This document shows, piece by piece, positions 7,317 through 38,052 of a stretch of DNA of 64,000 nucleotides. The translations under genes and the position numbers were made by a program. The notes beneath the pieces were generated by a model that searched no databases, had not been told where the DNA came from, and saw only the letters and a program-made list of their open reading frames with translations. Source of the DNA: Candidatus Magasanikiibacteriota bacterium (GTDB lineage: Bacteria; Patescibacteriota; Patescibacteriia; Magasanikbacterales; GWA2-37-8); contig JBAYGI010000005.1 of the NCBI GenBank assembly GCA_041666745.1, positions 7,748-71,747 of the forward strand, given 5' to 3'. Numbering within the stretch: position 1 is the stretch's first letter; each line of letters opens with the position of its first letter.

Positions 7317-9314
7317 TTATTTCTCCGGACCAACATGCACACCTATTTTTGCCCCACCGGAAATTGATTTTCCAAAATATGTCAATTCCACATAAGGCGC
7401 ATCTTTTTTGAGGGTGTATTTCTTTTTTATATCAAGCTTCAAAGCTATGTTGGTACTTTTGGCGCCAGTCATTTTCAACCAAACATAGTTGTTGTTATAT
7501 TTAGTAACTTTAAATTGAAAAGCTACTCCACTATAAATAAATGATTTGTTGGTGCAAATAGTATAAACACCATCTACCCCTTTTTCATCAGTACAACTTT
7601 CACTGTATGAATCCTGCAAAGAAGTATTGGAATCTACTTTGAACAACGCCCTACCTTCGGCTCCGACACCAATATAAGTTATAGTCAAATATTTTCCCGG
7701 CTTATTGACAACATAGAAAGTTTCCGGAGTATTTAAAACCAAGTCTGCATCTTCTTCACTCAAGCCTGCGAGCTCTACATTGGCTTCCTCACCATCATTG
7801 CTAATCACTTTTATTTTTGTTCCACTCCAATAGTGATCAATAGCAAAACCATTACAAATCAAAACATTACTATTTCCAGATTTTATATCACTACAAGCTG
7901 GCAAAGGTTTGGTGGTTGGAGAGGAAGTGGCGGTAGTGGCGTAGGAAAAATTTACATAATCAGACCACTGGCCGGTAAAGCCATTTGGAAACATTGGTAA
8001 AACTCTAACTTTAAATTGACCGTCTCCCCATAATGGCGCAGTTTGCAAAGTGTTGGAATAAGTTTTCCATTTCATAACCGCTGACCACAATGGTTGAGAA
8101 CATTTTTCACAAGCTACTTCTACTTGATATTGGTTGGCATTATCTACTTTTTTCCAAATTAAATCCACAATTCGTGGGTAGTTTGTAAGAATAGAACCAT
8201 TGTCTGGTGAAGTAATTGTGGTTTTGGCCATTTCATCAACCCACGGAGTTTTGTTATCATCACTTTTTGGTTTAGCCAAGCAAGTTCCATCCGCACAACC
8301 ATATGGACATTTGTACCACTGAGTATGAACATAATTTTTACCACTGGCAGAACTGCAATGTGTTTCAGCTATAAAATTTCCTGACACTTTATTTTTATCA
8401 CCAATATATATACCACAAGAATCAGGATACACATCATAAGCTCCGGTTAATTCATCGTTACCGGTAGCGATACCAAAAACATTGTAATTTAATTTGTCGG
8501 TTTCTGTACATTTGGCATTTGGAGTAGCAACTGGTTTAATTTTGCACGCTCCTTTAAAACAACCATAATCGCATTTGTACCACTGGTCATGAACTTTGCC
8601 ATAAGAACAATTTTTTTCATCAATATAAGCACCCTCGGATTTTCCTGAATCCCCAACATAATTTCCACAACTATCTTCAAAAGTACCTTTGGATAAACCA
8701 TTTTCTGATTGACCGGTGGCGTTACCAAATACATTGTAATCCAAGCCTTTATCACTTTCACTACAAGCTGGAGTTTCGACGGGAGTTGGAGCCGTCATTT
8801 TTAAACAAGCGCCATTTTCACAACCGTTTTCACATTTATACCACTGGGTATGCACATAGCCATTGGAACAATTACGTTCAGCTATATATGAGCCTTTTTC
8901 TTTATTTAAATCACCTACACTGGCACCACAACTATCATTTACTGTAGCTATCGAAGTTGAACCCTCAATAATACCAGTCGCCCAACTGGAAGTGTAATAA
9001 TCTAATCCACTATCGCCTTCCGTACAACTAATTTTGGTGGCGGTTGCAGAGTCATCACAAGGTTTCCAATTTACATAATATTCAGTATCTGAAGTACATT
9101 TCATGGTATAAAACTGATAACCATACTCGGTTTTTCGACAAGCGGTCGTCAAAACATAAGTAGAATTATCTCTTGTTATCTGAATATCGTTGCCAACTTG
9201 TACACATTTGGTCACAGCTACTGGATTCCCACCAACATCTGGCAAAGCATACGTAGCCACTGGCACTGCCAACAAAAAGGCAAATACCACTAACGAAAGA
9301 AAAATTTTCTTCAT
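7317..9314 (-). CDS. secreted protein with three tandem Cys-rich modules
   Basis: Signal peptide MKKIFLSLVVFAFLLAVPVATYA. Three approximately 95-aa repeats each ending WYKC(E/D/P)xGCxxGxC(L/K)…. Confidence 0.6.
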   Translation of the reverse strand: MKKIFLSLVVFAFLLAVPVATYALPDVGGNPVAVTKCVQVGNDIQITRDNSTYVLTTACRKTEYGYQFYTMKCTSDTEYYVNWKPCDDSATATKISCTEGDSGLDYYTSSWATGIIEGSTSIATVNDSCGASVGDLNKEKGSYIAERNCSNGYVHTQWYKCENGCENGACLKMTAPTPVETPACSESDKGLDYNVFGNATGQSENGLSKGTFEDSCGNYVGDSGKSEGAYIDEKNCSYGKVHDQWYKCDYGCFKGACKIKPVATPNAKCTETDKLNYNVFGIATGNDELTGAYDVYPDSCGIYIGDKNKVSGNFIAETHCSSASGKNYVHTQWYKCPYGCADGTCLAKPKSDDNKTPWVDEMAKTTITSPDNGSILTNYPRIVDLIWKKVDNANQYQVEVACEKCSQPLWSAVMKWKTYSNTLQTAPLWGDGQFKVRVLPMFPNGFTGQWSDYVNFSYATTATSSPTTKPLPACSDIKSGNSNVLICNGFAIDHYWSGTKIKVISNDGEEANVELAGLSEEDADLVLNTPETFYVVNKPGKYLTITYIGVGAEGRALFKVDSNTSLQDSYSESCTDEKGVDGVYTICTNKSFIYSGVAFQFKVTKYNNNYVWLKMTGAKSTNIALKLDIKKKYTLKKDAPYVELTYFGKSISGGAKIGVHVGPEK

Positions 9315-10552: not shown

Positions 10553-11905
10553 CTAGTAATCCTTTAGTTTAGAGATAAGATCAGAATGTTGAATTTTTTC
10601 CAGTGCTTTTGCTTCAATCTGACGAATACGTTCACGCGTCACCCCAAATTCCTGACCCACTTCCTCCAAGGTATGCGTAACCCCATCCCCCAATCCAAAC
10701 CTCATTTCCAAGATTTTCTGCTCACGTGGAGACAAAGATTTGATTGCCTCTTTGACATAGTCACGCAACAATTGCAAACCGGCCGCACGATCCGGTGAAA
10801 CATTTTTGACATCTTCAATAAAATCACCGAGTTGAGTATCTTCATCATCATCACCAACAGAAACATCAAGCGATACAGTATCCTGCGAAATTTTTATAAT
10901 ATGATTAATTTTTTCCACTTCTTCACCCATTTCAGCTGCTAATTCTTCCGGGGTAGGATCACGTCCCAAATCCTGAGTAAGACGACGCTGTACTTGTTGA
11001 AAACGATTGATTGTTTCCACCATATGCACCGGAATACGAATAGTGCGCGACTGATCAGCCAAAGCACGAGTGATCGCCTGACGAATCCACCAAGTAGCAT
11101 AAGTAGAAAATTTGTAGCCTTTGCGATGATCAAATTTTTTCACCGCTCTAAACAAACCGATATTTCCTTCTTGAATCAAATCTAACAGAGACAGGCTTTT
11201 ACCAACAAATTTTTTGGCAATCGAAACTACCAAACGCAAGTTGGCCTCAATGATTTTTCGCTCGGCCGCTTTGTCTCCGCGTTCTTTTCGTTTGGCCAAA
11301 GATACTTCTTGTTCGCCAGTCAATAGTGGAATTTTTCCAATTTCACGCAAATACATTTGGATTGAGTCCGAAGAAATTTCTCCCAAATCAAAAGGCACAT
11401 CCATATCCGGCTGTTCACCTTGAAACTCTTTCAAAACTTCTTGATTTTGTTGTTTGACTCCCAAAATACTTTGATTGGACTCCACCACACTGACACCATT
11501 TCTTTCGATCGCATCCAAAAAACCTTCATAGAGATCCAGATACAACTCCGGTCGCTTCATCAGCCCCAACATTTCCACGTCGGTAATAAAACCACGATGT
11601 CTACCTTTGTTTATCAATCTATAAAGATCATCGTTGGTTGGTTCAACTTCCGGTTCTGCTTCTGCAACCAGCGCTGTTCTTTTTTGTAAAAATTTTCCTT
11701 TTTTAAAAGGTTTTTCTTTTGGTAATTTAAAAATTTTCTTGCCGGCTATTTTGGGCGCTGGTTTACCAACCGTTTTATGCGCCACTTTTTTGATCACCAC
11801 TTCCTTTTTTTTAAACAACTTAACAACCGATTTTTTAATTGGTTTGATGTGAACAATTTTTTTTACTAATATTTTTTTCTTCGGTTGTTTTACCTTTTTT
11901 TGCAT
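10553..11905 (-). CDS. rpoD: primary RNA polymerase sigma factor RpoD
   Basis: 450 aa. Lys-rich N-terminus and regions 1.2-4 (…[41 protein letters not shown]…). Immediately downstream of dnaG, as in the classic dnaG-rpoD operon. Confidence 0.9.
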
Positions 11906-11920
11906 AAAATCTATAACTAA

Positions 11921-14866
11921 TTAAATACTTTGAAGTTCGATTAATAATTTTTCCATCTGTTGTTTGTCCGGATTTTTTTCAGCTGAAACCAACGCTAATT
12001 CTTGACCGATTTGTTTTCTTCTTTTTTTTGACCATTCATCTTTTATTTGCACTATCAATTCGGCCAACTCATCTTTAATCGAATCTTCTTCAATATTTTC
12101 CACCTGAATTTGGGCGATCATTTTTAAATTCTCAAAATCATCTTTGGATTCTGATTCATCAAAAAAACTTCGCCAAACTTCAACAGTATTGGCTTGGTTA
12201 GTATTATAATGTTTTTTTATGATTTCGTAAAGGTGTCCATAAAAACTCCCCTGCCAGCAACCGTCTTTTAAACCTGACCACAAAGAATTGATATATTGCG
12301 GAGAAAAAATCAAAATCATCAAAAATCTTTTTAACAACATGTCCAATCTATCCAAATCCGCCGCGCTTTTACTGTTTTCTTTATCTTTATTCTCTAGATT
12401 ATTTTTTTTGTTTTTGTCAAAACGTTTTATGTCATCTCTCAACACCGACGTGTCCGTACCCAATCTTCCCGCCAACTCTTTTAACCAGTAGTCTCTTTCG
12501 ACTGCAAACGGGATTAAATTGATAATCGGCAAAAGTTCATTGGCAATTTTTTGCTTGGCTTTTGGTTCAGAAGTATTTTTATTTAAAAAAGCCATTTCGA
12601 AAAACCAATGTAATACATCATCGGAATTTTTTACCGCCAAAAACCATACCTCCGGATTTTGTTTCAAACATTCATCGGCATCTTTTCCTTTTCCTTCCGG
12701 AATACGAATCGCTTTCACATTCAATCCCTCACCTAGAGCGATATCTATTCCGCGCTTCGCCGCTGCCACTCCGGCCGAATCACCGTCAAACGCCATGGCG
12801 ATATTGTTGGAATAGCGTTTGAGTAATTTTATTTGTTCTAGAGATAGAGCCGTACCGGAAGATGCCACCACATTTTTCATCCCCGCCTGATGACAAGCGA
12901 TCACATCCATTTGCCCCTCTACTAATACAACCAGATCCTGTGCTTTTATTTCAGTTTTGGCTTTGTCCAAACCATAGATCACTCGCGACTTGTCATAAAC
13001 CAAAGTTTGCGGTGTGTTTACATATTTTCCGCCACTATTTTCGGTCTCTACCAAAACTCGTCCGGTAAAACCAACTACATTTCCATGCACATCCCAAATC
13101 GGAAACATTATTCGTCCGCGGAAACGATCGTAAAATCCTTGTCCGGCGCGCGCCACATCTTTTTTTATTACCAAACCGGCCGCCACCAAATCATCGACTC
13201 CGATTCCTTTTTTTAAAAAATATTTTGTTAATAAATCCCACTGATCCGGGATAAAACCAATTTGCCATTTTTCGATTGTTTCTTTTTTCAAACCACGTTT
13301 TTCCAAATATTCACGCGCACCTTTGGCACCTTCCATCTCAGTCAAAATATGATGAAAAAAATAAGCCGCCTTTTGGTTGATTTCCAAAATGCGATTTTTT
13401 TGACTTTTATCTATTTCACTTCGATAGTTATCTATTTTTACCCCGGCGCGATCAGCCAATAATTTCAAAGTTTCAGGAAAATCCAGCCCCTCCATCTCTT
13501 GTACAAAAGAAAAAATATCTCCACCTTTTCCGCAATTACTAACTGCAAAATTCTCGGTCAAATACGAATGATCTTGTGATACGGTCAGATTAAAAACTGG
13601 CCCTTCAAAACTAGAACTTGTAATTTTTTTAATCGGATAGATAACAAACTTAGTCTCGCCATCCACCAGCCAATCCGTATATTTCGCTTGGACATCCTCG
13701 TACCACATTACATGGTATGACTTTTTATGATGGACTCCACGCTTATCCGTTTTTTCTTGATGTTGAAAAATACTAGGGATAATATTCAATCTCAACAATA
13801 TTTCCTTTAGTTGAAAAACTAAACTGTGTGATATCGTACTAACACTCCTATAATCAGGTCTTGATTTTTTACCACCTTTACTATTATGTCCGTCCCCTCG
13901 AAATATAGCTTCCAACAATATCCTTTGTTTACTAAAAGGCAGATACTCCCAACCATAAGGGATATGTTTATTGGCCGCGCCTTTGCCACATAAATTTTCA
14001 AAAATATTTGCTAAATTTGAATTACAACATGTTATTTCCAATCCAGTTTTTTTACCAGAACGTTTATGAATTGAAGCATTAATATTAAAAATGTTTTTAC
14101 ATAATTCAACAATATCCTGTGCGAATACCGGTTCATGACTGCCAACACTAAATCTTATATATCCACGATGATTACTACCTTCGGCTATCCAATAACCCAC
14201 TAATTTCAAAAAATCTTCGTTAATTTTTATATATTTAGGTAGCGCAAAAATCTTTTTGCCGACATTTTTTTTACCACGATTAAGATAATCAAAAAGTTTA
14301 ATTCTATTAATTTTAATTACTTTATCAACGACAGGATACAATAAATAATCATTCAATTTTAATTCGCCAGCGGAAATTTCTTCTATTTTATAACCTCTAA
14401 AAAATTTATGCGGGCAATTTTGTTTGCATTGTTTTTGGCACAATCTAGTCGCTCTTGATTTCTGTATACAATTCTTAGTTCTAACACAAAACACTTTGTG
14501 ATCATTTGTAATTTTTACTGGCATGTTTGATTTACGAATATATATTTGTCTTAACCCTCCCGAATAATTTCTAATCAGAGCACGAACAACATTGCATAAC
14601 TGTCCTTTGTGAGTATAAACAGAATCACCCACTTTAATATCCTCTATTTTGGTATGTCCACATTTAGTACGAATGAATGTTCCTGCCGGAAAACAACCAA
14701 AACATTTCCAAATTTGCTTTTCGGAATTGACCATGAAAGACGGCGTTTTTTCCTTGTGAAAAGGACACGGCGCTTTCCAATAAATGCCAGCTTTTTTGAG
14801 TGGCACATATTCTTGGATGGTCTGCACAATGTCAAGTTTTTCTTTGATGAGTTGAGTATCAGCCAT
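11921..14866 (-). CDS. dnaG: DNA primase DnaG with an in-frame intein
   Basis: Zn-ribbon CPFHKEKTPSF…KCFG, then the intein, then CGKGGDIFSFV. Primase/TOPRIM motifs follow (…VLVEGQMDVIA…AFDGDSAG…). 981 aa against about 590 aa for an intein-free DnaG. Confidence 0.85.
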   Translation of the reverse strand: MADTQLIKEKLDIVQTIQEYVPLKKAGIYWKAPCPFHKEKTPSFMVNSEKQIWKCFGCFPAGTFIRTKCGHTKIEDIKVGDSVYTHKGQLCNVVRALIRNYSGGLRQIYIRKSNMPVKITNDHKVFCVRTKNCIQKSRATRLCQKQCKQNCPHKFFRGYKIEEISAGELKLNDYLLYPVVDKVIKINRIKLFDYLNRGKKNVGKKIFALPKYIKINEDFLKLVGYWIAEGSNHRGYIRFSVGSHEPVFAQDIVELCKNIFNINASIHKRSGKKTGLEITCCNSNLANIFENLCGKGAANKHIPYGWEYLPFSKQRILLEAIFRGDGHNSKGGKKSRPDYRSVSTISHSLVFQLKEILLRLNIIPSIFQHQEKTDKRGVHHKKSYHVMWYEDVQAKYTDWLVDGETKFVIYPIKKITSSSFEGPVFNLTVSQDHSYLTENFAVSNCGKGGDIFSFVQEMEGLDFPETLKLLADRAGVKIDNYRSEIDKSQKNRILEINQKAAYFFHHILTEMEGAKGAREYLEKRGLKKETIEKWQIGFIPDQWDLLTKYFLKKGIGVDDLVAAGLVIKKDVARAGQGFYDRFRGRIMFPIWDVHGNVVGFTGRVLVETENSGGKYVNTPQTLVYDKSRVIYGLDKAKTEIKAQDLVVLVEGQMDVIACHQAGMKNVVASSGTALSLEQIKLLKRYSNNIAMAFDGDSAGVAAAKRGIDIALGEGLNVKAIRIPEGKGKDADECLKQNPEVWFLAVKNSDDVLHWFFEMAFLNKNTSEPKAKQKIANELLPIINLIPFAVERDYWLKELAGRLGTDTSVLRDDIKRFDKNKKNNLENKDKENSKSAADLDRLDMLLKRFLMILIFSPQYINSLWSGLKDGCWQGSFYGHLYEIIKKHYNTNQANTVEVWRSFFDESESKDDFENLKMIAQIQVENIEEDSIKDELAELIVQIKDEWSKKRRKQIGQELALVSAEKNPDKQQMEKLLIELQSI
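13535..14695 (-). mobile_element. intein (387 aa) with LAGLIDADG homing endonuclease, inserted in the DnaG zinc-finger CFG|CG site
   Basis: The intein begins CFPAGTFIRT… (Cys1) and ends …NFAVSN, followed by a +1 Cys. Two LAGLIDADG-like motifs are present (LVGYWIAEGSNHRGYI and LLEAIFRGDGH). The exteins rejoin as …WKCFGCGKGGD…, the canonical DnaG sequence. Confidence 0.7.
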
Positions 14867-15056
14867 ATACCATTAATTTAACACTGTTTACTATAAAAAA
14901 CAAGAGCAGGTCCAAACCAAAAACGAACGCTTAAATACTTGACAAAAGTGAGAAAAAATGATAGGTTTGGCCCATCCTCAGACGAGTGTTTGGAGGAAGT
15001 TCTGCATACCAACGCAGAATCTAGTTCCCTGACAATTCACAAGGCAGGAAAAATAC

Positions 15057-15554
15057 ATGCTTCCCAGTTTTCACTTGACCGACCTGTTCTTTTGGGTCGG
15101 ATTTCTTTTCCTTTTGCTCTTCGCGGGATACCATCTCATCATCTCCTGGCTTCGACGAGTGGATTCTTTCTCGAAGATCCAGGGAGACGTGAGTGTTGAA
15201 CGGACAATCCGTCACTTCCTGCGACCGGCCATCCTGACACTCCTAGCTATCACTGCGCTCATTTGCGTCACCATCGGCCAGGGCTCGCAGGCGAGCACGC
15301 AGAACGCCTCGCTCAATCCCGAGATGAAGGTCCGCGACGACTTCGTCAAGGCACAACAGGAGGAAGCCAAGACGGTGACCCCCAAGACTGTGCCAGCGAT
15401 GGAAGCCGAACGGAAACAGGTGGAGGAGACAAAGCGCAAACAGGCGGAGGAAGATGCGCGACGTCGCCAGGAACAGTCCGGCGAGGCGCTCAAGAACTTC
15501 CGCCAGCGAGTCATGGAGCGTGGCATCAATCCAACGGACATCACCACACCGTAG
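15057..15554 (+). CDS. membrane protein (two TM helices plus charged C-terminal tail) in GC-rich island
   Basis: 165 aa with GC3-rich codon usage (island about 60% GC against about 35% in the flanks). Two hydrophobic helices and a Glu/Lys/Arg/Gln-rich tail. Confidence 0.55.
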   Translation: MLPSFHLTDLFFWVGFLFLLLFAGYHLIISWLRRVDSFSKIQGDVSVERTIRHFLRPAILTLLAITALICVTIGQGSQASTQNASLNPEMKVRDDFVKAQQEEAKTVTPKTVPAMEAERKQVEETKRKQAEEDARRRQEQSGEALKNFRQRVMERGINPTDITTP

Positions 15555-15605
15555 CACAGAGCTTCGGTTCGGGTTTCCGTTTTTCAAGACAAGAGGAGAA
15601 TTCAG

Positions 15606-16655
15606 ATGAAGAGCTTTTCGATTCGCGCCGCAATCGCACTGATGGCGGCAATCACTCTCTCCACCCTCGCCGGCTGTGAGGGCTGTACCGGACGGGTTCC
15701 GGGCGGCTACGTCGGCATGGTCATGACCCCGAGCGGGTTTAACGGGGACATCCTTGCTCCCGGCAATCACTCCTGCTACGGCAAAGACAGGATGTACCTG
15801 CTCGAAGTGAGCGACACCCAGAAGGCCGTCGAGATCAACCAGTTGACCACCGACAAGATCAACTTCAAGGCGTCCATCGGAGTGCTTTTCTCGGTGGATC
15901 GTGGCAACAAGCAGGCGATCAAAGACGCGTTCGACAACCTCACGGCGGTGCAAACGGCCGACGCGAAGGTGTTCGTAATCTCCGCCGAGTATCTTTTCAA
16001 GACCTACGTCATGGCGATTGCGGACGAGCAGGGAAGAAAAGTATATTCAAGATACGAATCTTCAGAGGTGGTGTCCAACCGCTCGAAGATTGTCGAGGAG
16101 GTCCGAACCGGAGTCGTGACGGCCTTCCAGAACGGCCTAGTCAAGATCAAGCAGGTCACGGTCAACAACGATGACTTTCCGCACGACGTGAATATGTCTT
16201 GGGAGGCGCGTGCCAGGAAGATCATCGACACCGAGACCGAAAAGGCCGAGCAAACCCGACAACTGATCATCAAGAACAATGAGTTGGCGCTGGAGACACT
16301 CAATTACCAGATCGACTTGGTCAAGGCGGCGAACGTCGCCGACTCGAACAAGATCATCGGCTCGTCCATCACGCCCGAGTATCTGGCATACCAACAGATC
16401 AAGGTCATGGGCGACGCGGCCAAGGGTCCGAACAACTGGGGATTCATCCCCTTCACGGACTATGCCAACGGCAAGGTCAACGGTGGCCCGGCCGACCGCC
16501 TGACAAGCAAAGGTCTGGTCGACGCCGAGCTGATCAAGAGGATTCAGGATGCGCGCCAGAAAGGCGCCGACGCCAAAGCCCAACAGGACAAGGCCAAGGC
16601 ACCCACGGCACCGCCTCCCGCCGATCCTCCGGCGGCCGCTCCTGCCACTCCGTAG
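15606..16655 (+). CDS. SPFH/band-7 domain lipoprotein with Pro/Ala-rich C-terminal tail, in GC-rich island
   Basis: Strong SD AGGAGA. Signal peptide with lipobox LAGC. SPFH-like core. C-terminal …APTAPPPADPPAAAPATP. High GC3. Confidence 0.6.
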   Translation: MKSFSIRAAIALMAAITLSTLAGCEGCTGRVPGGYVGMVMTPSGFNGDILAPGNHSCYGKDRMYLLEVSDTQKAVEINQLTTDKINFKASIGVLFSVDRGNKQAIKDAFDNLTAVQTADAKVFVISAEYLFKTYVMAIADEQGRKVYSRYESSEVVSNRSKIVEEVRTGVVTAFQNGLVKIKQVTVNNDDFPHDVNMSWEARARKIIDTETEKAEQTRQLIIKNNELALETLNYQIDLVKAANVADSNKIIGSSITPEYLAYQQIKVMGDAAKGPNNWGFIPFTDYANGKVNGGPADRLTSKGLVDAELIKRIQDARQKGADAKAQQDKAKAPTAPPPADPPAAAPATP

Positions 16656-16782
16656 ATACTACACTCACCCTCGCCAGCTATCAGGCGTAAGATAGCCGAC
16701 GAAGCTCTTTCCCACCAATACGCCCGGTGACGCGTAAGCGTTCCGGTTCATCCGCCCTGTGCATTTTGTTGGCACGGGGCAA

Positions 16783-16825
16783 TCACAAAAGACACCATTT
16801 CAAATGATGTCTTTTGTTTTTATTT
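16783..16825 (+). terminator. rho-independent terminator closing the GC-rich island
   Basis: AAAAGACACCATTTCAAATGATGTCTTTTGTTTTTATTT. Confidence 0.45.
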
Positions 16826-17082
16826 ATAATTTTATTTTTTTCTGTTTATAACCCTCTAAAATTTTCTGAATTTGTTTTTTGAATTCAGGTAAATCGCTTT
16901 TTACGGTTTTCCAAACTACGAGATCATCTATTTGAAAATATTCATGTATCATTTTATCTCTCATAGTCTTGTGTCTTGCCGGATAATAAAAACTTTTCTT
17001 TGTTTAAATCGGCCACATAACTTTCCACCGCCTCAATGCTTTCAAAAATGTGTTCTAAATAAATTACAGGGTCTTTGCGCAT
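16824..17082 (-). pseudogene. HEPN/DUF86 (HepT-like) toxin gene remnant, internally deleted and frameshifted
   Basis: The N-terminal fragment MRKDPVIYLEHIFESIEAVESYV… ends in a stop after 42 codons. In the +1 frame …TMRDKMIHEYFQIDDLVVWKTVKSDLPEFKKQI… carries the conserved R-x4-HxY and C-terminal DUF86 signature. Its start codon lies 1 nt after the MNT stop. Confidence 0.5.
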
Positions 17083-17083
17083 A

Positions 17084-17386
17084 TTAAAATACTCGCACTA
17101 AATCTTTGTTAATATACGGTTTTAATTTTTTATCCACCGAACGAAAAGTAATCACATCAAATTTACGGCCAACTTTTTCTTCCAAAGAATTTTTTAAATT
17201 TACAAAAGCAAATAGGCCAACTTCTTTTTTGAAATCCACCAATAAATCTACGTCACTGTTTTTTCTTTCTTCTCCACGCGCGAACGAACCAAAAATAGAC
17301 GCCCTTTTTACTTGGTGCTTTTTTAAAATCGGAATTATGGATTTTTTTATTTTTTGGCAGGTTGTCATATGTTTGTATATTACCAT
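17084..17386 (-). CDS. MNT-type nucleotidyltransferase (antitoxin of HEPN/MNT module)
   Basis: 100 aa with the minimal nucleotidyltransferase motif GSFARGEERKNSDVDLLVDF. Confidence 0.7.
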   Translation of the reverse strand: MVIYKHMTTCQKIKKSIIPILKKHQVKRASIFGSFARGEERKNSDVDLLVDFKKEVGLFAFVNLKNSLEEKVGRKFDVITFRSVDKKLKPYINKDLVRVF

Positions 17387-17412
17387 ACCAAAACAGATGT
17401 GTCTATATTTTT

Positions 17413-18660
17413 TTATTCTCTACGCAATGCCTCAATCGGATTCAAATTCGCCGCTTTTTTGGCGGGATAAATTCCGAAGAGCAAACCGACAAAAGCGGAA
17501 AAACCCAATGACAATAAAATGGATGAAATTGGTATGGAATACACCCAAGAAAAATTATAATAGATTGCAATCCAATATACTAAAAGAGCTAATATCGCGC
17601 CCAAAGCAACTCCAACTACTCCGCCTAACAATGTCAAAGTAATCGCCTCGCTTAAAAACTGAAACAAAATATCTTTATTTTTCGCGCCTATCGCTTTGCG
17701 CAAACCGATTTCAAAAGTACGCTCGGAAACCGAAACATACATAATATTCATAATTCCCACCCCACCGACTAACAAAGAAACACAAACCAAAGCAACTAAT
17801 AAAAAGGTCAGACCATTGATTACACCGGACAACATATTCATCGCTTCTTCCATTGTGTTTACCGCAAAATCATCTTTATTTGGATCAGTTATATCATGAT
17901 TGGCGCGAATTATTTCTTCCAAATCGGTAACGGTATTTTTTATTTCATTTTTATCTTTGGCGCGCATAATAATCTCACGCACATAATCTATTCCCAAAAT
18001 TCTTTTCTGCATTGTTTTGGTTGGAATATACATCACATTGTCCATATCCATTCCAAAAATCGCGCCCCGTTTGGCGGCAATACCAACTATTTTGAATGGT
18101 TTTCCTTTTATATATACTGATTTTCCAACCGCGTCATCCTCTCCAAACAATGCGTCTTTGGTAACAGCGCCGATCACCGCCACTTGTGACAAAGAATTTT
18201 CTTCATCTTCGGTAAATAATCTGCCGGCAGATAAATTAAAAACTTCCACCTCTTGTAAATTTGCGCCTTCACCCCAGAGTAATGTGGTTTTGGTTGCTTG
18301 ATTGTATTTCACCACCGCTTGACCAATTACCATACCATACGCGGCGGCGATATTTGGATGTTTTCGAACATCATCAATATCCTTATCTTTTAAAGAAGTG
18401 ATAGTGATACCGGTAGATTGTCCCATCGCATTTTCATTGGAAGTTTTTTTTGTTGAAGGAACTTTTGTTTCAATAGTTATTGTATTGGGAGAATAAATTT
18501 CCAGTTGACCCAATACCAACTTGTCCAAACCTTTTCCAGCGGCCATAATGGTAATAACAACCGCGATTCCAATAGCAATACCAAGCACAGTCAAAAGAGT
18601 GCGTGTTTTTTGCGCTTTTAAAGATGATATAGCGAGTTGTAAATTTGTTTTTAAAAACAT
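17413..18660 (-). CDS. MacB-like ABC transporter permease (FtsX domain with large periplasmic domain)
   Basis: 415 aa with N-terminal TM, a periplasmic core of about 200 aa, and three C-terminal TM helices ending …IYPAKKAANLNPIEALRRE. Confidence 0.75.
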   Translation of the reverse strand: MFLKTNLQLAISSLKAQKTRTLLTVLGIAIGIAVVITIMAAGKGLDKLVLGQLEIYSPNTITIETKVPSTKKTSNENAMGQSTGITITSLKDKDIDDVRKHPNIAAAYGMVIGQAVVKYNQATKTTLLWGEGANLQEVEVFNLSAGRLFTEDEENSLSQVAVIGAVTKDALFGEDDAVGKSVYIKGKPFKIVGIAAKRGAIFGMDMDNVMYIPTKTMQKRILGIDYVREIIMRAKDKNEIKNTVTDLEEIIRANHDITDPNKDDFAVNTMEEAMNMLSGVINGLTFLLVALVCVSLLVGGVGIMNIMYVSVSERTFEIGLRKAIGAKNKDILFQFLSEAITLTLLGGVVGVALGAILALLVYWIAIYYNFSWVYSIPISSILLSLGFSAFVGLLFGIYPAKKAANLNPIEALRRE

Positions 18661-33299: not shown

Positions 33300-36200
33300 T
33301 TATGGTGTAGTGATAATTTCGGTAGCTGGTGGCACAGTCTCCGTTGGTGGTGTTTCAGCAGGAGGGGTTGTAGGGATACTTTCGACAGGAGGAGTTTCGG
33401 TTGTGATAACCGTAACTGGCTCAGTAGAAGTAGGTGCCCCTGTATCCACTATTGGCTCTGTTGAGCCAACAACAACATCACCTGACACAATATTTCCACC
33501 ATCTGTACTGCCCACAGCCGGTGCCACTACCTGATTTTTCTGTAACAAATCTTGCAACTGAGCTTCGGTAACACAAGTATTTCCAATGCACAATTCATTG
33601 GTGTGAATCTTTTCCGCAAAAAATTCTTTCACTTGCAAAAACCCGTCTTTAATAATCATTCCTAACTTACTCAAAGCATATTTTACAGTAATAGAAAATT
33701 TATCCAAAACTGTCGGAGTGCTAGTGCTGGTGGTACTGGTAACTAGTGTTTCAGGAATATCTTCCTCGGTCAAATCACCAATCGACCAATGTGGATTAAC
33801 AAAAATCTCAACTGTTCCGGTTGTGACAGTATCACCATTTGAAGACAAAGAAGTCAACGCAAAACCGATAACTCTGCCAGGTTCTTTTGCTTTTGTGGCA
33901 AAACCGGCAACGTTGGAAGCAGTGATTCCATCGCCGACATTAATTGTACCACTGGTAATGACAACATTCACAGGCACACGTCCGGCCAAAGCAACCAAAC
34001 GCGAAAATGTCGCGTCAGAATCATCTGAATTCAATCCTGACCCACCCAATATCATACCTGGGGCGGTGGAGATAACACCGATTGATTTATCACTTGATAA
34101 TTCAGAACATTTTTCTACAAAATAAACGCCCGTTGACGAACTATTTTTTGTACAAACTACATCACCGGCAACCGGACAAGAATTATTTTCCGCACAGCTT
34201 GGATCCACCGGATATGTTTCGGCCAAATCCAAAGTGGTTGTACCGGTTATAAACGAAGTGGCTTTAATGTATCCATTTACTCCAAGCCCGGCACCAGAAG
34301 CACCACCGGCATCGATGACCATTTTGTAACCAGTGACGTTGGTGGTGGTGTTCACTAAAATCGAACCAACAAAAGTAGTAGAAACTACATTCAAATTTTG
34401 AGACCAAACATTCTTCCAACGATAACTCGAAGTACCTAAATCATAAATAGAATCTGTTTCCGGAATTATGTCGTGTGTGGTAACTTTATTTAAACTAGTA
34501 TCACCGGTAACTTTCAGCGAAATCAAATTTTGATCATCACCAATTTTCAAAACATGATCAGTGTCATTGACAGATAATGCGCGGTAAATTGTATTGTTCC
34601 AACCAATGTTTACAAACACAGTAATAGACCCAACTGATGCGCCGGAATAACTTTCCATGGCGATACCAACAGTTGGTCCTTCGGCGGTTGCTTTCATAGC
34701 AACACCTGGAACATCCGAAGAAGTCAATTTGTCGCCTACCACAATCGCGCCATTCACAGTAGAAACTTTGGTCGGCACACGACCAGCCAAAGCCACTTTT
34801 CGCACACCAGCATTATCTTCCAAATTTCCAAAATCACCACCACCAAGCAACAACCCAGGATCAGTAGATACTATACCAATTACAGTATTGTCATACAAAT
34901 TAGAACATTTTTTTACTCCGGAATTCAAAGATGAATCCGAACAAACCAAATCACCTGCATTCGGACAACTTCCGTTGGCATAACAATTGGAATTTATCGG
35001 ATATGTCTCGGCGATATCTAATGTTGAAGAGCCGGTTATCAATGAAGTCGCATTAATCACCCCGCGCACTCCAATCCCATATCCTGTATCCGAACCAGAA
35101 TCTATAATCAATTTATACGCCGTAGCGCCCATATATGACGATGTGTTGATCAATACTTTACCGTCAGATTTCACTAAAAGTATATTTGCGGTTGAAGAAT
35201 TACTAACTTGAAAAATAGTTTCATAAGCTGCGTCAGTATATAATTGCAACCTTGCTGTGGGAGTGGTAGTCCCTATACCAACTTTACCACCTGAAGGAAC
35301 GATACCTAATAAACCTCCACTTGATACTGTAAAGGAAGAATAATTAGCCGAATCATAATTCAAACGAAGCTGTTCGGTTGTACTTAATACTTGCAGTTGG
35401 GAAGCTGGGGTTGATGTGCCTATACCAACTTTACCATTCATATTTATCCTCATCCTCTCAGACCAATCAGTAGTTTGATCAGACACTCCATTTGTGAAAA
35501 AAGCCAAACCAGATCTAAAATAATCTCCTTCTGCAGTTTGCAATATACCAGCAGATTTTTTCGTATATCCATTTCCATAACCTGTTTTCCATATTAAACC
35601 ACCACCAAAAGCAGTTCCAGTACCTGTTCCTGATGGGCCATTATTTATGCCGAACCTAACAGAGCTTGTATCAGTAAGACCTGTAGTAGCAAAATCAAGT
35701 TTTTCACTTGGTACAGCAGTGCCGGTACCAATACCAACATTGCCAGCATTAGAAATAATCATTCTCAGTGTTTCACCTGATCCAGTTATAAATCTAATAA
35801 CACCTTCTGTGCTTGCAGGGCTGGATGGACTACCAGCGGCAAAAAACAGATTGCCTCTTTGGTTTACAGTTGCACTATATGTATTACCACGCCCGCCGAA
35901 ATATGGACCATTTGCATTACTAAATGTTGGTGTCGCGCCAAACATATATCCACCAGTCATATCAGAACCACTCAAATATACCATGTTTGTGTCATAACTA
36001 TTCGAAGCAGCTGCTCCTAATTGTATATTGCCCTCTCCAGAACTATTGCCACCCGTCAGCTTCAAAGATGAGCCATTAGCAAAAGTAGTCGCAACAGAAT
36101 TTGCAGGAGTAATGGTCAAAGCACCGTCTGATCCTACAGAAAAATCCGTGTAGTTGGCGGCAGAACCGTCTGAATCGTTGTAGGTAAGTCGCAAATCAGC

Positions 36201-37589
36201 ACCGGTGGCGGAATTTATTTCTAATGCTTTGCCCGGTCCGGTGGTGCCAATACCTACATTTCTTGTACTATTTACCATATACAATGTTGGCGCAGTAAAA
36301 GTAATCGCCGAATCTGCATCGCCAGTAGCTGCTTGATAAAAAGAAATATCACCGTTAGAATCTCTATAATTTACAAGAGAAACATAATCTGCCGCAAGAC
36401 GTTTCCATCCACTGCTATTATATATATTATGACCCATGATAGAACCGCCAGCAATATCAAATACTAAACCGTATGCGGCACTCGCGCCGTCTAATTGTAA
36501 AGTTGATTTTGGTGTGATAGTACCAATTCCAATTTTACCGTCTCCTTTTATCGTCAAGCGAGCTGTGCTGTTGTATCCTGCATTATACAAAGAACCAAAC
36601 ACCATATCTACTGTTGTCCCATTATATCGCGTATCTATTTGACCAGTAATATTAGAGCTATCGCGCCAAGTAATAGCTTTTTGTGCGCCGTTGGCATTAT
36701 ATCCTGTTCTAAAATTTAAAATCTCACTATTTGCGGATGTTGTACCAGCATCTGTAATCTGAAATTTCGTAGTAGTACCTGTATTTGAAGGGGCAAGAGT
36801 AAGTGCTCCATTACTACCCACAGTGAAAGAAGAATAATTAGACGCGTCATAATTCAATCTCAGCTGTTCTGTAGTTGCTAAAACCCCCAACTTTGCCGAC
36901 GGTGTTGTCGTACCAATGCCTACATTACCTCCTGTAGTCGCAAAAGTCGCGCCGTATGGGAAAGTAGAAGTGGCCGAACCGTAAATCGTGGTGGTGGCTG
37001 TGCCATTTCCTACGCTAATTCCTGTGCCTGCGCCGGATTGTAATATGTTCAAGGCCGGTGAAGCGGAATTGGCAGTAATGGACAAAATATTACTAAATGT
37101 CCAAGTCGCTGTGATTGTTTCGTTTGTTGCCAACTTTGCATAAGAGGAAGAAGCTAACCCGCCAAGTTTACCTGCCTCAAATGCCGATGGCACTGTGCCA
37201 AGTTTTTTGCGAGGCAATAATGTTTCCATCGTCGTTGTGCTATTGTCACTCACCTGCATTTCAAGATACAAATCTTGATTGAAATTTACACTGTCTAAAT
37301 TCGCCACTGAACCAAGTAATACACTAAATAATCCATTGGTCACTTGCACTTGGTTGGTGCTGGTGCGCGTTTCTGTCCATAGTACCGAACTACAGCCATC
37401 ATCCGCGCACAATTGGAATTGCATGTTGTACACACCATCAGCTACCGCCGCGTCACTGTTATTAGTCAGCTTACCTTGGTAGTTTATTTGAGGGTTATAA
37501 GTGGTGGCTTTGGAAACGCCAAACATAGCCAAAGAGATCGTGGCTATTATGAGCACTATTGCTACTTTCCCAAACCGCCAATTGTACAT
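33300..37589 (-). CDS. giant Gly/Thr/Ser-rich surface protein with internal repeats (the ORF track extends to 37682; the likely start is the Met before the TM helix)
   Basis: N-terminal TM VAIVLIIATISLAMFG. Three copies of TTEQLRLNYDASNYSSFTV(G/S)S-like units. Two copies of an approximately 90-aa Cys-containing module (…LDIAETYPINSNCYANGSCPNAGDLVC… and …LDLAETYPVDPSCAENNSCPVAGDVVC…). Pro/Thr-rich C-terminus. Confidence 0.6.
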   Translation of the reverse strand: MYNWRFGKVAIVLIIATISLAMFGVSKATTYNPQINYQGKLTNNSDAAVADGVYNMQFQLCADDGCSSVLWTETRTSTNQVQVTNGLFSVLLGSVANLDSVNFNQDLYLEMQVSDNSTTTMETLLPRKKLGTVPSAFEAGKLGGLASSSYAKLATNETITATWTFSNILSITANSASPALNILQSGAGTGISVGNGTATTTIYGSATSTFPYGATFATTGGNVGIGTTTPSAKLGVLATTEQLRLNYDASNYSSFTVGSNGALTLAPSNTGTTTKFQITDAGTTSANSEILNFRTGYNANGAQKAITWRDSSNITGQIDTRYNGTTVDMVFGSLYNAGYNSTARLTIKGDGKIGIGTITPKSTLQLDGASAAYGLVFDIAGGSIMGHNIYNSSGWKRLAADYVSLVNYRDSNGDISFYQAATGDADSAITFTAPTLYMVNSTRNVGIGTTGPGKALEINSATGADLRLTYNDSDGSAANYTDFSVGSDGALTITPANSVATTFANGSSLKLTGGNSSGEGNIQLGAAASNSYDTNMVYLSGSDMTGGYMFGATPTFSNANGPYFGGRGNTYSATVNQRGNLFFAAGSPSSPASTEGVIRFITGSGETLRMIISNAGNVGIGTGTAVPSEKLDFATTGLTDTSSVRFGINNGPSGTGTGTAFGGGLIWKTGYGNGYTKKSAGILQTAEGDYFRSGLAFFTNGVSDQTTDWSERMRINMNGKVGIGTSTPASQLQVLSTTEQLRLNYDSANYSSFTVSSGGLLGIVPSGGKVGIGTTTPTARLQLYTDAAYETIFQVSNSSTANILLVKSDGKVLINTSSYMGATAYKLIIDSGSDTGYGIGVRGVINATSLITGSSTLDIAETYPINSNCYANGSCPNAGDLVCSDSSLNSGVKKCSNLYDNTVIGIVSTDPGLLLGGGDFGNLEDNAGVRKVALAGRVPTKVSTVNGAIVVGDKLTSSDVPGVAMKATAEGPTVGIAMESYSGASVGSITVFVNIGWNNTIYRALSVNDTDHVLKIGDDQNLISLKVTGDTSLNKVTTHDIIPETDSIYDLGTSSYRWKNVWSQNLNVVSTTFVGSILVNTTTNVTGYKMVIDAGGASGAGLGVNGYIKATSFITGTTTLDLAETYPVDPSCAENNSCPVAGDVVCTKNSSSTGVYFVEKCSELSSDKSIGVISTAPGMILGGSGLNSDDSDATFSRLVALAGRVPVNVVITSGTINVGDGITASNVAGFATKAKEPGRVIGFALTSLSSNGDTVTTGTVEIFVNPHWSIGDLTEEDIPETLVTSTTSTSTPTVLDKFSITVKYALSKLGMIIKDGFLQVKEFFAEKIHTNELCIGNTCVTEAQLQDLLQKNQVVAPAVGSTDGGNIVSGDVVVGSTEPIVDTGAPTSTEPVTVITTETPPVESIPTTPPAETPPTETVPPATEIITTP

Positions 37590-37596
37590 AACCTGT

Positions 37597-38052
37597 TTAC
37601 GGTCTTGTTGAGGATGCCGTAAAACCCGAAGAAACCTCTGACGAGTGTTCAGAATAAATGGTATTAAGCTGAAACGCGCCAAAGTTGAGATCTTTTTTAG
37701 AGGTAAAATCTTCTTTGGTTGTAGAGAATTTGGCTACATATAAGTAAAAAATTAATAATAAAATAATTAAAAAACCGGCCACAATAAGACCGGCTGGTTT
37801 GTTTTTTAAATTTTGTTGTTTTGAAGACACTACTACGAGCTTATCGTCACCCAATTTTTTGACCATGAACATCCGCAAGTCCGACTCCCTCACACACCAA
37901 TTTCTACCCAATCGCTCGCCGTGTAATTTACTACCACGAATTAGAGAACTCAAATAGTCCTGGTGATAACCAGAAATACGGGAGGCCTCTTTTAAAGAAA
38001 TAAGCCCACTCATATAGTATATTTTACCCATATCGTCTATCCGAGATCTCAT
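37597..38052 (-). CDS. small membrane protein with N-terminal HTH-like segment
   Basis: 151 aa. MerR/excisionase-like N-terminal helix-turn-helix (…LISLKEASRISGYHQDYLSSLIRGSKL…) and one TM helix. Confidence 0.35.
   Translation of the reverse strand: MRSRIDDMGKIYYMSGLISLKEASRISGYHQDYLSSLIRGSKLHGERLGRNWCVRESDLRMFMVKKLGDDKLVVVSSKQQNLKNKPAGLIVAGFLIILLLIFYLYVAKFSTTKEDFTSKKDLNFGAFQLNTIYSEHSSEVSSGFTASSTRP

Follow-up and report, generated by a model that had tools for sequence, protein, structure and literature searches.

The dnaG Locus and the Inserted Segment

The DNA analyzed here, referred to below as the window, is a stretch of 64,000 nucleotides (nt) from contig JBAYGI010000005.1 of a Candidatus Magasanikiibacteriota bacterium (assembly GCA_041666745.1). 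Its minus strand carries dnaG, the gene of DNA primase, which is interrupted in frame by a putative intein with a homing endonuclease domain (Table 1). The open reading frame (ORF) is continuous, without stop codons or frameshifts. The 981-amino acid (aa) product was recognized by the NCBIfam model TIGR01391 (dnaG; 406 bits, cut-off 283.6), and four Pfam domains were found in it, namely Zn_ribbon_DnaG, DNAG_N, Toprim and DnaB_bind. The Zn_ribbon_DnaG match is split around the insert, and the three other domains lie outside it. The CHC2 zinc ribbon, RNA polymerase core and Toprim domain that together characterize a bacterial DnaG primase are all present, the ribbon being contiguous only after excision of the insert in silico.

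As determined by arithmetic and retranslation, the first residue of the insert (C58) is encoded at 14693–14695, the last (N444) at 13535–13537 and the residue that follows it (C445) at 13532–13534. The protein reads KQIWKCFG/CFPAGTFIRT across the upstream junction and NFAVSN/CGKGGDIF across the downstream one (a slash marks a junction here and below). The insert differs from its surroundings in composition, with a GC content of 32.3% (23.5% at third codon positions, GC3) vs. 38–40% (GC3 35–42%) in the exteins. Joining residues 1–57 to 445–981 gives a primase of 594 aa and 67.8 kDa. This spliced protein can be aligned to Aquifex aeolicus DnaG (PDB: 2au3) without gaps across the junction (kqiwkcfgcgkggdifsfv vs. 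KQIFKCFGCGVGGDAIKFV; junction segment KQIWKCFGCGKGGD vs. KQIFKCFGCGVGGD). Its residues 5–95 match residues 11–101 of the zinc-binding domain 1d0q with a constant offset of +6. The zinc ligands of 1d0q, which we take to be Cys40, His43, Cys61 and Cys64, correspond in this alignment to C34, H37, C55 and C58 of the spliced protein (C445 of the precursor). The putative intein is placed by the alignment between the third and fourth CHC2 zinc ligands (C55-F-G/C), and its predicted +1 nucleophile is at the same time the fourth ligand.

A preliminary description of this DNA had proposed a 981-aa DnaG with residues 58–444 inserted, an insert that begins with Cys and is followed by another Cys, and the return of the primase zinc ribbon upon excision. 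The ORF and codon coordinates fit this proposal exactly, C58 and C445 are each found in all 60 members of the intein family, and the 594-aa product can be aligned without gaps both to 2au3 and to the product of an intein-free dnaG from a close relative (locus L081, see below). The family counts given here and below refer to 60 sequences, i.e., the window copy and 59 others found by tblastn in a genome scan with one genome per GTDB species.

Table 1. Features of the dnaG precursor gene and of the putative intein (coordinates in the window; residue numbers of the 981-aa precursor).
Feature	Position	Strand	Property or basis
dnaG precursor ORF (N-extein, intein, C-extein)	11921–14866	−	981 aa, 112.3 kDa
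N-extein, aa 1–57, ending in KCFG; CHC2 zinc ligands C34, H37, C55	14696–14866	−	Alignment to 1d0q
Putative intein, aa 58–444: Hint splicing domain interrupted by LAGLIDADG endonuclease	13535–14695	−	387 aa, 44.5 kDa, pI 9.7
Block A, CFPAGTFIRTKCG; Cys1 (aa 58), predicted first nucleophile	14657–14695	−	Cys1 60/60, Gly-1 60/60
Block B, NMPVKITNDHKVFC; T120 and H123	14486–14527	−	Thr 60/60, His 60/60
Cys4 insert, basic, in the loop that follows block B; C133, C143, C147, C151 (KNCIQKSRATRLCQKQCKQNCPH)	14408–14476	−	6 K/R, 0 D/E; proposed DNA- or metal-binding module
LAGLIDADG motif 1, FLKLVGYWIAEGSN, aa 219–232; predicted catalytic Glu in IAEG	14171–14212	−	IAEGS visible in 60/60 family rows
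LAGLIDADG motif 2, ILLEAIFRGDGHN, aa 316–328; predicted catalytic Asp in GDG	13883–13921	−	GDG visible in 60/60 family rows
Blocks F and G, EGPVFNLTVSQDHSYLTENFAVSN; N426 (F:4), His433 (block F), S443 (penultimate), N444 (terminal)	13535–13606	−	Family alignment
Cys+1 (aa 445), predicted second nucleophile; fourth zinc ligand once spliced	13532–13534	−	60/60 in family
Remainder of C-extein: rest of zinc-binding domain, RNA polymerase core, Toprim, DnaB-binding region, stop codon	11921–13531	−	Pfam, structure alignment

Splicing Domain

Within the insert the Pfam model Hint_2 gave 39 bits (E = 1.3e-9, cut-off 28.4), and on the full protein the score of the NCBIfam model intein_Cterm was exactly at its cut-off. 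Hint blocks A, B, F and G were looked for, and all four were found, conserved in 60 of the 60 family members; in blocks F and G, positions were counted back from the terminal Asn. Cys1, the preceding Gly (Gly-1), the Thr and His of block B, the terminal Asn and Cys+1 are invariant in the family (60/60 each), and the His of block F is present in 59 copies. The features of class 1 inteins, i.e., Cys1, block B Thr-x-x-His, a terminal Asn followed by Cys+1 and a Hint fold, are all represented. The insert is also in frame at a conserved host site, is absent from the orthologues of close relatives, and its removal restores the host protein. The penultimate His (G:6), usual and not obligatory for class 1, is replaced by S443.

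According to a review (PMC4031507), His at G:6 and the residues at F:4 (mostly Asp) and F:13 (mostly His) are assisting, less conserved positions; splicing without the penultimate His has a precedent in Chen, Benner and Perler (2000), as cited in that review. In the family the penultimate residue is Gly (28 copies), Ala (16), Ser (13), Lys (2) or Asn (1) and is never His; Asn occupies F:4 in 54 copies and Asp in 6. The preliminary description was right in that the insert ends in SN and not in HN. Its view of this end as peculiar is not upheld: SN agrees with the norm of the family, because no penultimate His occurs in any of the 60 copies.

Assignment to other classes was considered. Class 3 inteins have Cys at F:4, Trp at B:12 and Thr at G:5 and lack Cys1 or Ser1; this class was ruled out, as Cys1 is present and F:4 is occupied by Asn or Asp (54 and 6 copies) and not by Cys. 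Class 2, with Ala1 and direct attack by Cys+1, was ruled out by Cys1 in 60/60. A bacterial intein-like (BIL) domain was ruled out on the residues.

The Cys cluster KNCIQKSRATRLCQKQCKQNC, located within aa 131–153 and mentioned in the preliminary description, is indeed present and can be described more closely: four of the five Cys belong to a conserved insert that roughly half of the family has. The pattern C-x7-9-C-x3-C-x2-4-C is shared by the window copy and 31 others of the 60. Three Cys are invariant in the copies that bear it, and conservation of R138 and R141 is 90% or higher. The other 28 family members carry at the same position a Cys-free, K/R/Y-rich insert of approximately 30–40 residues. 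The Cys4 pattern was also observed in P0010, a more distant intein that ends in GN/S.

Homing Endonuclease Domain and Predicted Fold

The two LAGLIDADG-like motifs proposed in the preliminary description agree with the Pfam model LAGLIDADG_3 (E = 3.2e-13, 50.2 bits, cut-off 22.5) and with the predicted fold. Scores of this size, here and for Hint_2, lie well outside what chance would give. The AlphaFold2 (AF2) model of the intein, obtained with 14 family sequences, has a predicted local distance difference test score (pLDDT) of 87.3 and a predicted TM-score (pTM) of 0.87. Motif 1 lies in a helix at intein residues 160–172, which is followed by a strand, and motif 2 lies in the helix 254–268. 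Both helices end in an acidic residue (Glu in GYWIAEGS, Asp in IFRGDGH), as is characteristic of double-motif enzymes.

A Foldseek search against the PDB placed first the TliVMA intein (7qsu; E = 5e-21, query TM-score (TMq) 0.68), followed by PI-SceI (1vde_A, 2.9e-18), PhoVMA, PI-PkoII and PI-PfuI. The free-standing LAGLIDADG endonucleases I-DmoI, I-Tsp061I and I-SceI align to the central (endonuclease) half of the model and mini-inteins to its Hint part. PI-PkoII was the sole match at E < 0.001 (E = 1e-8) when solved chains were searched by sequence. On the sequence and the model, the insert is assigned to the double-motif LAGLIDADG endonucleases of the intein-borne type, and DNA cleavage by it is predicted.

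Distribution, Empty Sites and Transfer

Full-length copies of this intein occupy the identical dnaG position in 59 genomes, each representing a GTDB species (tblastn E ≤ 5e-79, identity 39–60%). These genomes are labeled mostly as Patescibacteria/Candidate Phyla Radiation (CPR; Saccharibacteria, Levybacteria, Daviesbacteria, Nealsonbacteria, Magasanikbacteria and others) or as Omnitrophota. The site reads CFG/C at the start and N/C at the end of the intein throughout the alignment (n = 60), with an extra Gly (CFGG/C) in two sequences. In these two, L010 and L020, the spliced knuckle would read C-x3-C and not C-x2-C.

The wider superfamily of LAGLIDADG inteins is large, as an exhaustive HMMER search gave 4772 representatives at E ≤ 1e-30. 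Among the 150 best representatives, approximately 25 show the DnaG architecture, i.e., proteins of about 960–1020 aa in which the intein begins at about residue 58–61. A word-indexed protein search with the intein gave at least 13 matches and missed the 92%-identical P0051, as well as P0078 and P0139. A very rare family, which this number alone would suggest, is contradicted by the 59 species genomes. Distant relatives are located before the CGD Cys of an IscU/NifU-like protein (P0011) and at the catalytic PCQ Cys of a C5 DNA methylase (P0013). One DnaG intein, P0008, lacks the second LAGLIDADG motif and represents a degenerate endonuclease; this loss fits the prediction of the homing cycle. 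Phages were considered as carriers and dismissed. Relatives in GenBank phages were at most 26% identical and resided in DNA polymerase, portal and methylase genes, those in IMG/VR were only 22–28% identical, and neither collection gave evidence for a vector.

Close relatives of the host have DnaG without the insert. A search with the spliced protein revealed complete DnaGs (P0023–P0032) of 594 or 600 aa, 85–89% identical over 100% of the query, and an N-terminal fragment (P0086, 93% identical), all without the insert. The intein occurs in 3 of the 120 homologues listed (P0051, P0078 and P0139, 984–989 aa). The names on these homologues point to Candidatus Magasanikbacteria. The possibility that relatives carry the segment as ordinary protein sequence was checked and fails, since DnaGs 85–93% identical to the spliced protein are devoid of it.

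The locus of P0023 (L081) is syntenic with that of the window and includes ABC transporter/FtsX genes, dnaG, rpoD and murG. Its dnaG comprises 1785 nt, exactly as the joined exteins of the window do; identity in the gapless alignment of the two is 83% (nt) and 88.6% (aa). Around the insertion point both sequences are near-identical and differ only in the +1 codon (TGC vs. TGT). By its sequence (GAAAAGCAAATTTGGAAATGTTTTGGTTGTGGAAAAGGTGGAGATATTTTTTCC at the uninterrupted site), the dnaG of L081 represents an empty homing site.

The intein of P0051, which originates from an unrelated sequencing run, is 91.7% aa and 93.9% nt identical to that of the window, and the C-exteins of the two share 63.7% aa and 64.6% nt identity. 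The synonymous divergence (dS) between window and P0051 is 0.18 for the intein, 0.94 for the N-extein and 1.7 for the C-extein (aa 445–800, computed on a codon alignment); between the exteins of the window and those of the intein-free P0023 it is 1.13. Because intein dS (0.18) is so low beside extein dS (0.94–1.7), the two intein copies are far younger than the split of their hosts. Young intein copies, together with empty sites in closer hosts, indicate recent horizontal homing. The ratio of nonsynonymous to synonymous divergence (dN/dS) vs. P0051 is 0.20 for the whole intein and 0.19 for its endonuclease part, which indicates purifying selection on both activities ever since the transfer.

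An independent Logan contig, L102, corresponds to window positions 14699–17698 and ends at dnaG codon F56, 3 nt before the first intein codon. This end could represent a break of the assembly graph caused by coexisting alleles with and without the intein. The contig is exactly 3000 nt long, and its end could also be a coincidence or a truncation.

Proposed Mechanism and Alternative Explanations

The insert is very probably a true intein of class 1, located in frame in dnaG and equipped with a double-motif LAGLIDADG homing endonuclease; its activities are predicted from sequence and model. After translation, an N–S acyl shift would occur at Cys58, and Cys445 would then take over the N-extein by transesterification. 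Cyclization of Asn444, presumably aided by block F His433 and not by a penultimate His, would release the intein, and an S–N shift would join the exteins. The 112.3-kDa precursor would thus give a 67.8-kDa primase with the junction peptide IWKCFGCGKGGDIF and a 44.5-kDa intein; the zinc site would form only at this stage. The freed intein could act as a site-specific nuclease cutting intein-less dnaG at the conserved sequence TGTTTTGGT/TGTGGAAAAGGTGGAGAT, and repair of the cut empty allele would copy the intein into it (homing).

Several points weigh against this reading. The Pfam model Intein_splicing reached 31.8 bits, below its gathering score of 35.8. The penultimate His is absent and F:4 is occupied by Asn instead of the usual Asp, so that both known assisting positions are affected; with such weak assisting residues, splicing may be slow or conditional. 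The Cys4 insert is the only poorly modeled stretch (AF2, intein residues 75–98, pLDDT < 50), and a PDB search with a profile of 30 Cys4 inserts gave no match even at E up to 10. On these grounds an assignment of the Cys cluster to a known fold was dropped, and the role of the insert is a guess, that of an accessory DNA-contact module, possibly zinc-stabilized, being the most likely. Co-conversion of the flanks is a weak hint, too weak to be claimed: in the upstream 90 nt the window matches P0051 at 85 of 90 positions vs. 78 of 90 for the close relative, and further out at 60 of 81 vs. 66 of 81. Intein and extein identities are correlated across 55 loci of distant species (r = 0.67), and much of the distribution could be vertical and not due to current homing. 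Splicing, cleavage and metal binding, finally, are activities that we infer.

The correlation just mentioned would also be expected if the intein splices and its endonuclease is inactive, the element being fixed in certain CPR lineages and passed on vertically. The loss of the second LAGLIDADG motif in at least one family member (P0008) points in the same direction. This explanation is nevertheless unlikely, considering that IAEG and GDG are retained in all 60 aligned rows, that dN/dS in the endonuclease part is 0.19, that a copy 94% identical at the nt level resides in a host gene with dS > 0.9, and that empty sites occur at 85–93% extein identity. Both modes, long residence by vertical descent and local transfer, probably contribute. 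The possibility that the insert is never excised, and either stays in DnaG as a permanent domain or acts as a BIL domain, by cleavage alone, is very improbable. It could draw on the missing penultimate His and on the Intein_splicing score under the cut-off; against this, the insert splits a zinc knuckle of an essential enzyme between ligands 3 residues apart, Cys+1 and the terminal Asn are present in 60/60, and the closest relatives are collinear without the insert. An assembly artefact or a pseudogene is still less credible, to the point of being negligible. No support for either was found beyond the one independent contig (L102) that stops 3 nt before the intein; the ORF is intact, the same architecture is seen in 59 independently assembled genomes and in the contigs of P0051, P0078 and P0139, and dN/dS of 0.20 speaks against a pseudogene.

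One further possibility would add to the class 1 explanation. Splicing could be conditional, gated by zinc or redox state, with primase maturation dependent on it; this is rather doubtful. The precursor keeps a complete CHC2 signature (C34-x2-H37-x17-C55-x2-C58), in which Cys1 of the intein is in the register of the fourth ligand, and CFG/C or CFGG/C is found in 60/60. Zinc bound to Cys1 or Cys+1 could stop the first or the second step, and the Cys4 insert could provide a second metal or disulfide site. The absence of His at G:6 and Asn at F:4 fit a slow, controllable reaction; under such a gate, the reaction would owe a rate low enough for control to the fact that the whole family has lost the penultimate His and the Asp of block F. 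Zinc reversibly inhibits the mycobacterial intein DnaBi1 via a catalytic Cys (PMC7360933), and zinc inhibition of further inteins appears among the work cited in PMC4031507. Against the gate, inteins reside as a rule at conserved catalytic or ligand residues (the IscU Cys in P0011, the PCQ Cys in P0013), conservation of the homing target alone explains the site, and about half of the family lacks the Cys4 insert. A halt of splicing until conditions change, imposed by zinc bound to the split ribbon and perhaps to the Cys4 insert, is on balance improbable.

Comparison with Known Inteins

PI-PkoII (PI-TkoII), the Pol intein of Thermococcus kodakarensis (2cw7), shares with the present element a class 1 Hint domain and a double LAGLIDADG endonuclease (fold E = 3.1e-16). 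It differs in its host, an archaeal DNA polymerase, in its length of 537 aa with extra domains, and in sequence (approximately 13% identity in the structural alignment). TliVMA and PhoVMA (7qsu, 7qss, 7qst) and PI-SceI (1vde, 1lws) show the same layout of Hint, endonuclease and accessory parts, whereas their hosts are V-ATPase subunits and their accessory domains are unrelated in sequence. All three have the canonical His-Asn as their last two residues. PI-SceI recognizes DNA by a region inserted within its Hint domain (PMC8966425), and the Cys4 insert likewise occupies a loop of that domain.

Inteins lacking His at G:6 are exemplified by those of Chen, Benner and Perler (2000) and by Ssp DnaE (Sun et al. 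2005), both as cited in PMC4031507. Splicing is expected of the present intein as well; in contrast to these examples, the loss described here is family-wide (60/60) and is accompanied by Asn at F:4 in 54/60. The DnaBi1 intein of Mycobacterium smegmatis (PMC7360933) resembles the present one in residing in a replisome protein and in having a catalytic Cys that can bind zinc; it is, however, a mini-intein in DnaB, proven by experiment, and the zinc link in DnaG is only positional.

The preliminary description held inteins to be uncommon in dnaG, in agreement with Novikova et al. (2016), who counted 14 DnaG (COG0358, DNA primase) inteins vs. 317 in DnaB and reported the former from Actinobacteria and Proteobacteria (PMC4760082). 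The host family is the same; the inteins described here reside in the zinc ribbon, mostly in genomes labeled Patescibacteria/CPR and Omnitrophota. Literature searches for "DnaG intein" or "primase intein" gave no description of this site, and searches for inteins together with CPR/Patescibacteria led to work on rRNA introns and not on the present element. The insertion site is apparently undescribed in the literature searched, and the clade is sizeable; for the 14 DnaG inteins of Novikova et al. the comparison extended to their number and host phyla. In kind the element is ordinary, a class 1 intein with a LAGLIDADG endonuclease of a known type.

Public names encountered for such proteins were "hypothetical protein", "CHC2 zinc finger domain-containing protein" or "DNA primase". 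Recognition of the intein corrects the models of a gene essential for replication; at least 59 species genomes are concerned, the majority labeled CPR. The 60 natural sequences without a penultimate His, mostly with Asn at F:4, could serve as a test bed for assistance in Asn cyclization, and the presence of both splice nucleophiles at a zinc-ligand position offers a testable system for the debated idea of inteins as conditional switches. The pair of window and P0051 makes a clear case for recent intein transfer among divergent uncultured bacteria. The endonuclease, for its part, would add a rare cutter of defined target to the enzymes known.

Neighboring Loci

Downstream of dnaG, the sigma-70 gene rpoD (10553–11905, minus strand, 450 aa) starts 15 nt past the dnaG stop codon and is followed by murG; the order dnaG–rpoD is a classic one and is kept in L081. 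No Pfam match at E ≤ 1e-4 was obtained for two ORFs elsewhere on the minus strand of the window, located at 33300–37682 (1460 aa) and 7317–9314 (665 aa).

Directly upstream of dnaG, a 1.8-kb island (15050–16850) has a GC content of 54–64% in a genome of 38% GC. Two ORFs are located on its plus strand, at 15057–15554 (165 aa, no Pfam match) and at 15606–16655 (a 349-aa Band_7/SPFH protein). The syntenic locus L081 is devoid of this island and has only a 124-aa ORF there. Since L102, from an independent run, spans both island junctions at 100% identity, the island is real and horizontally acquired and is no chimera of assembly. Beside it, at 16824–17386 on the minus strand (coordinates mapped from L101 with an offset of 11605), a nucleotidyltransferase gene (17084–17386) is followed by a HepT-like gene broken into ORFs of 46 and 42 aa, and the region looks like a decayed MNT/HEPN toxin–antitoxin pair.

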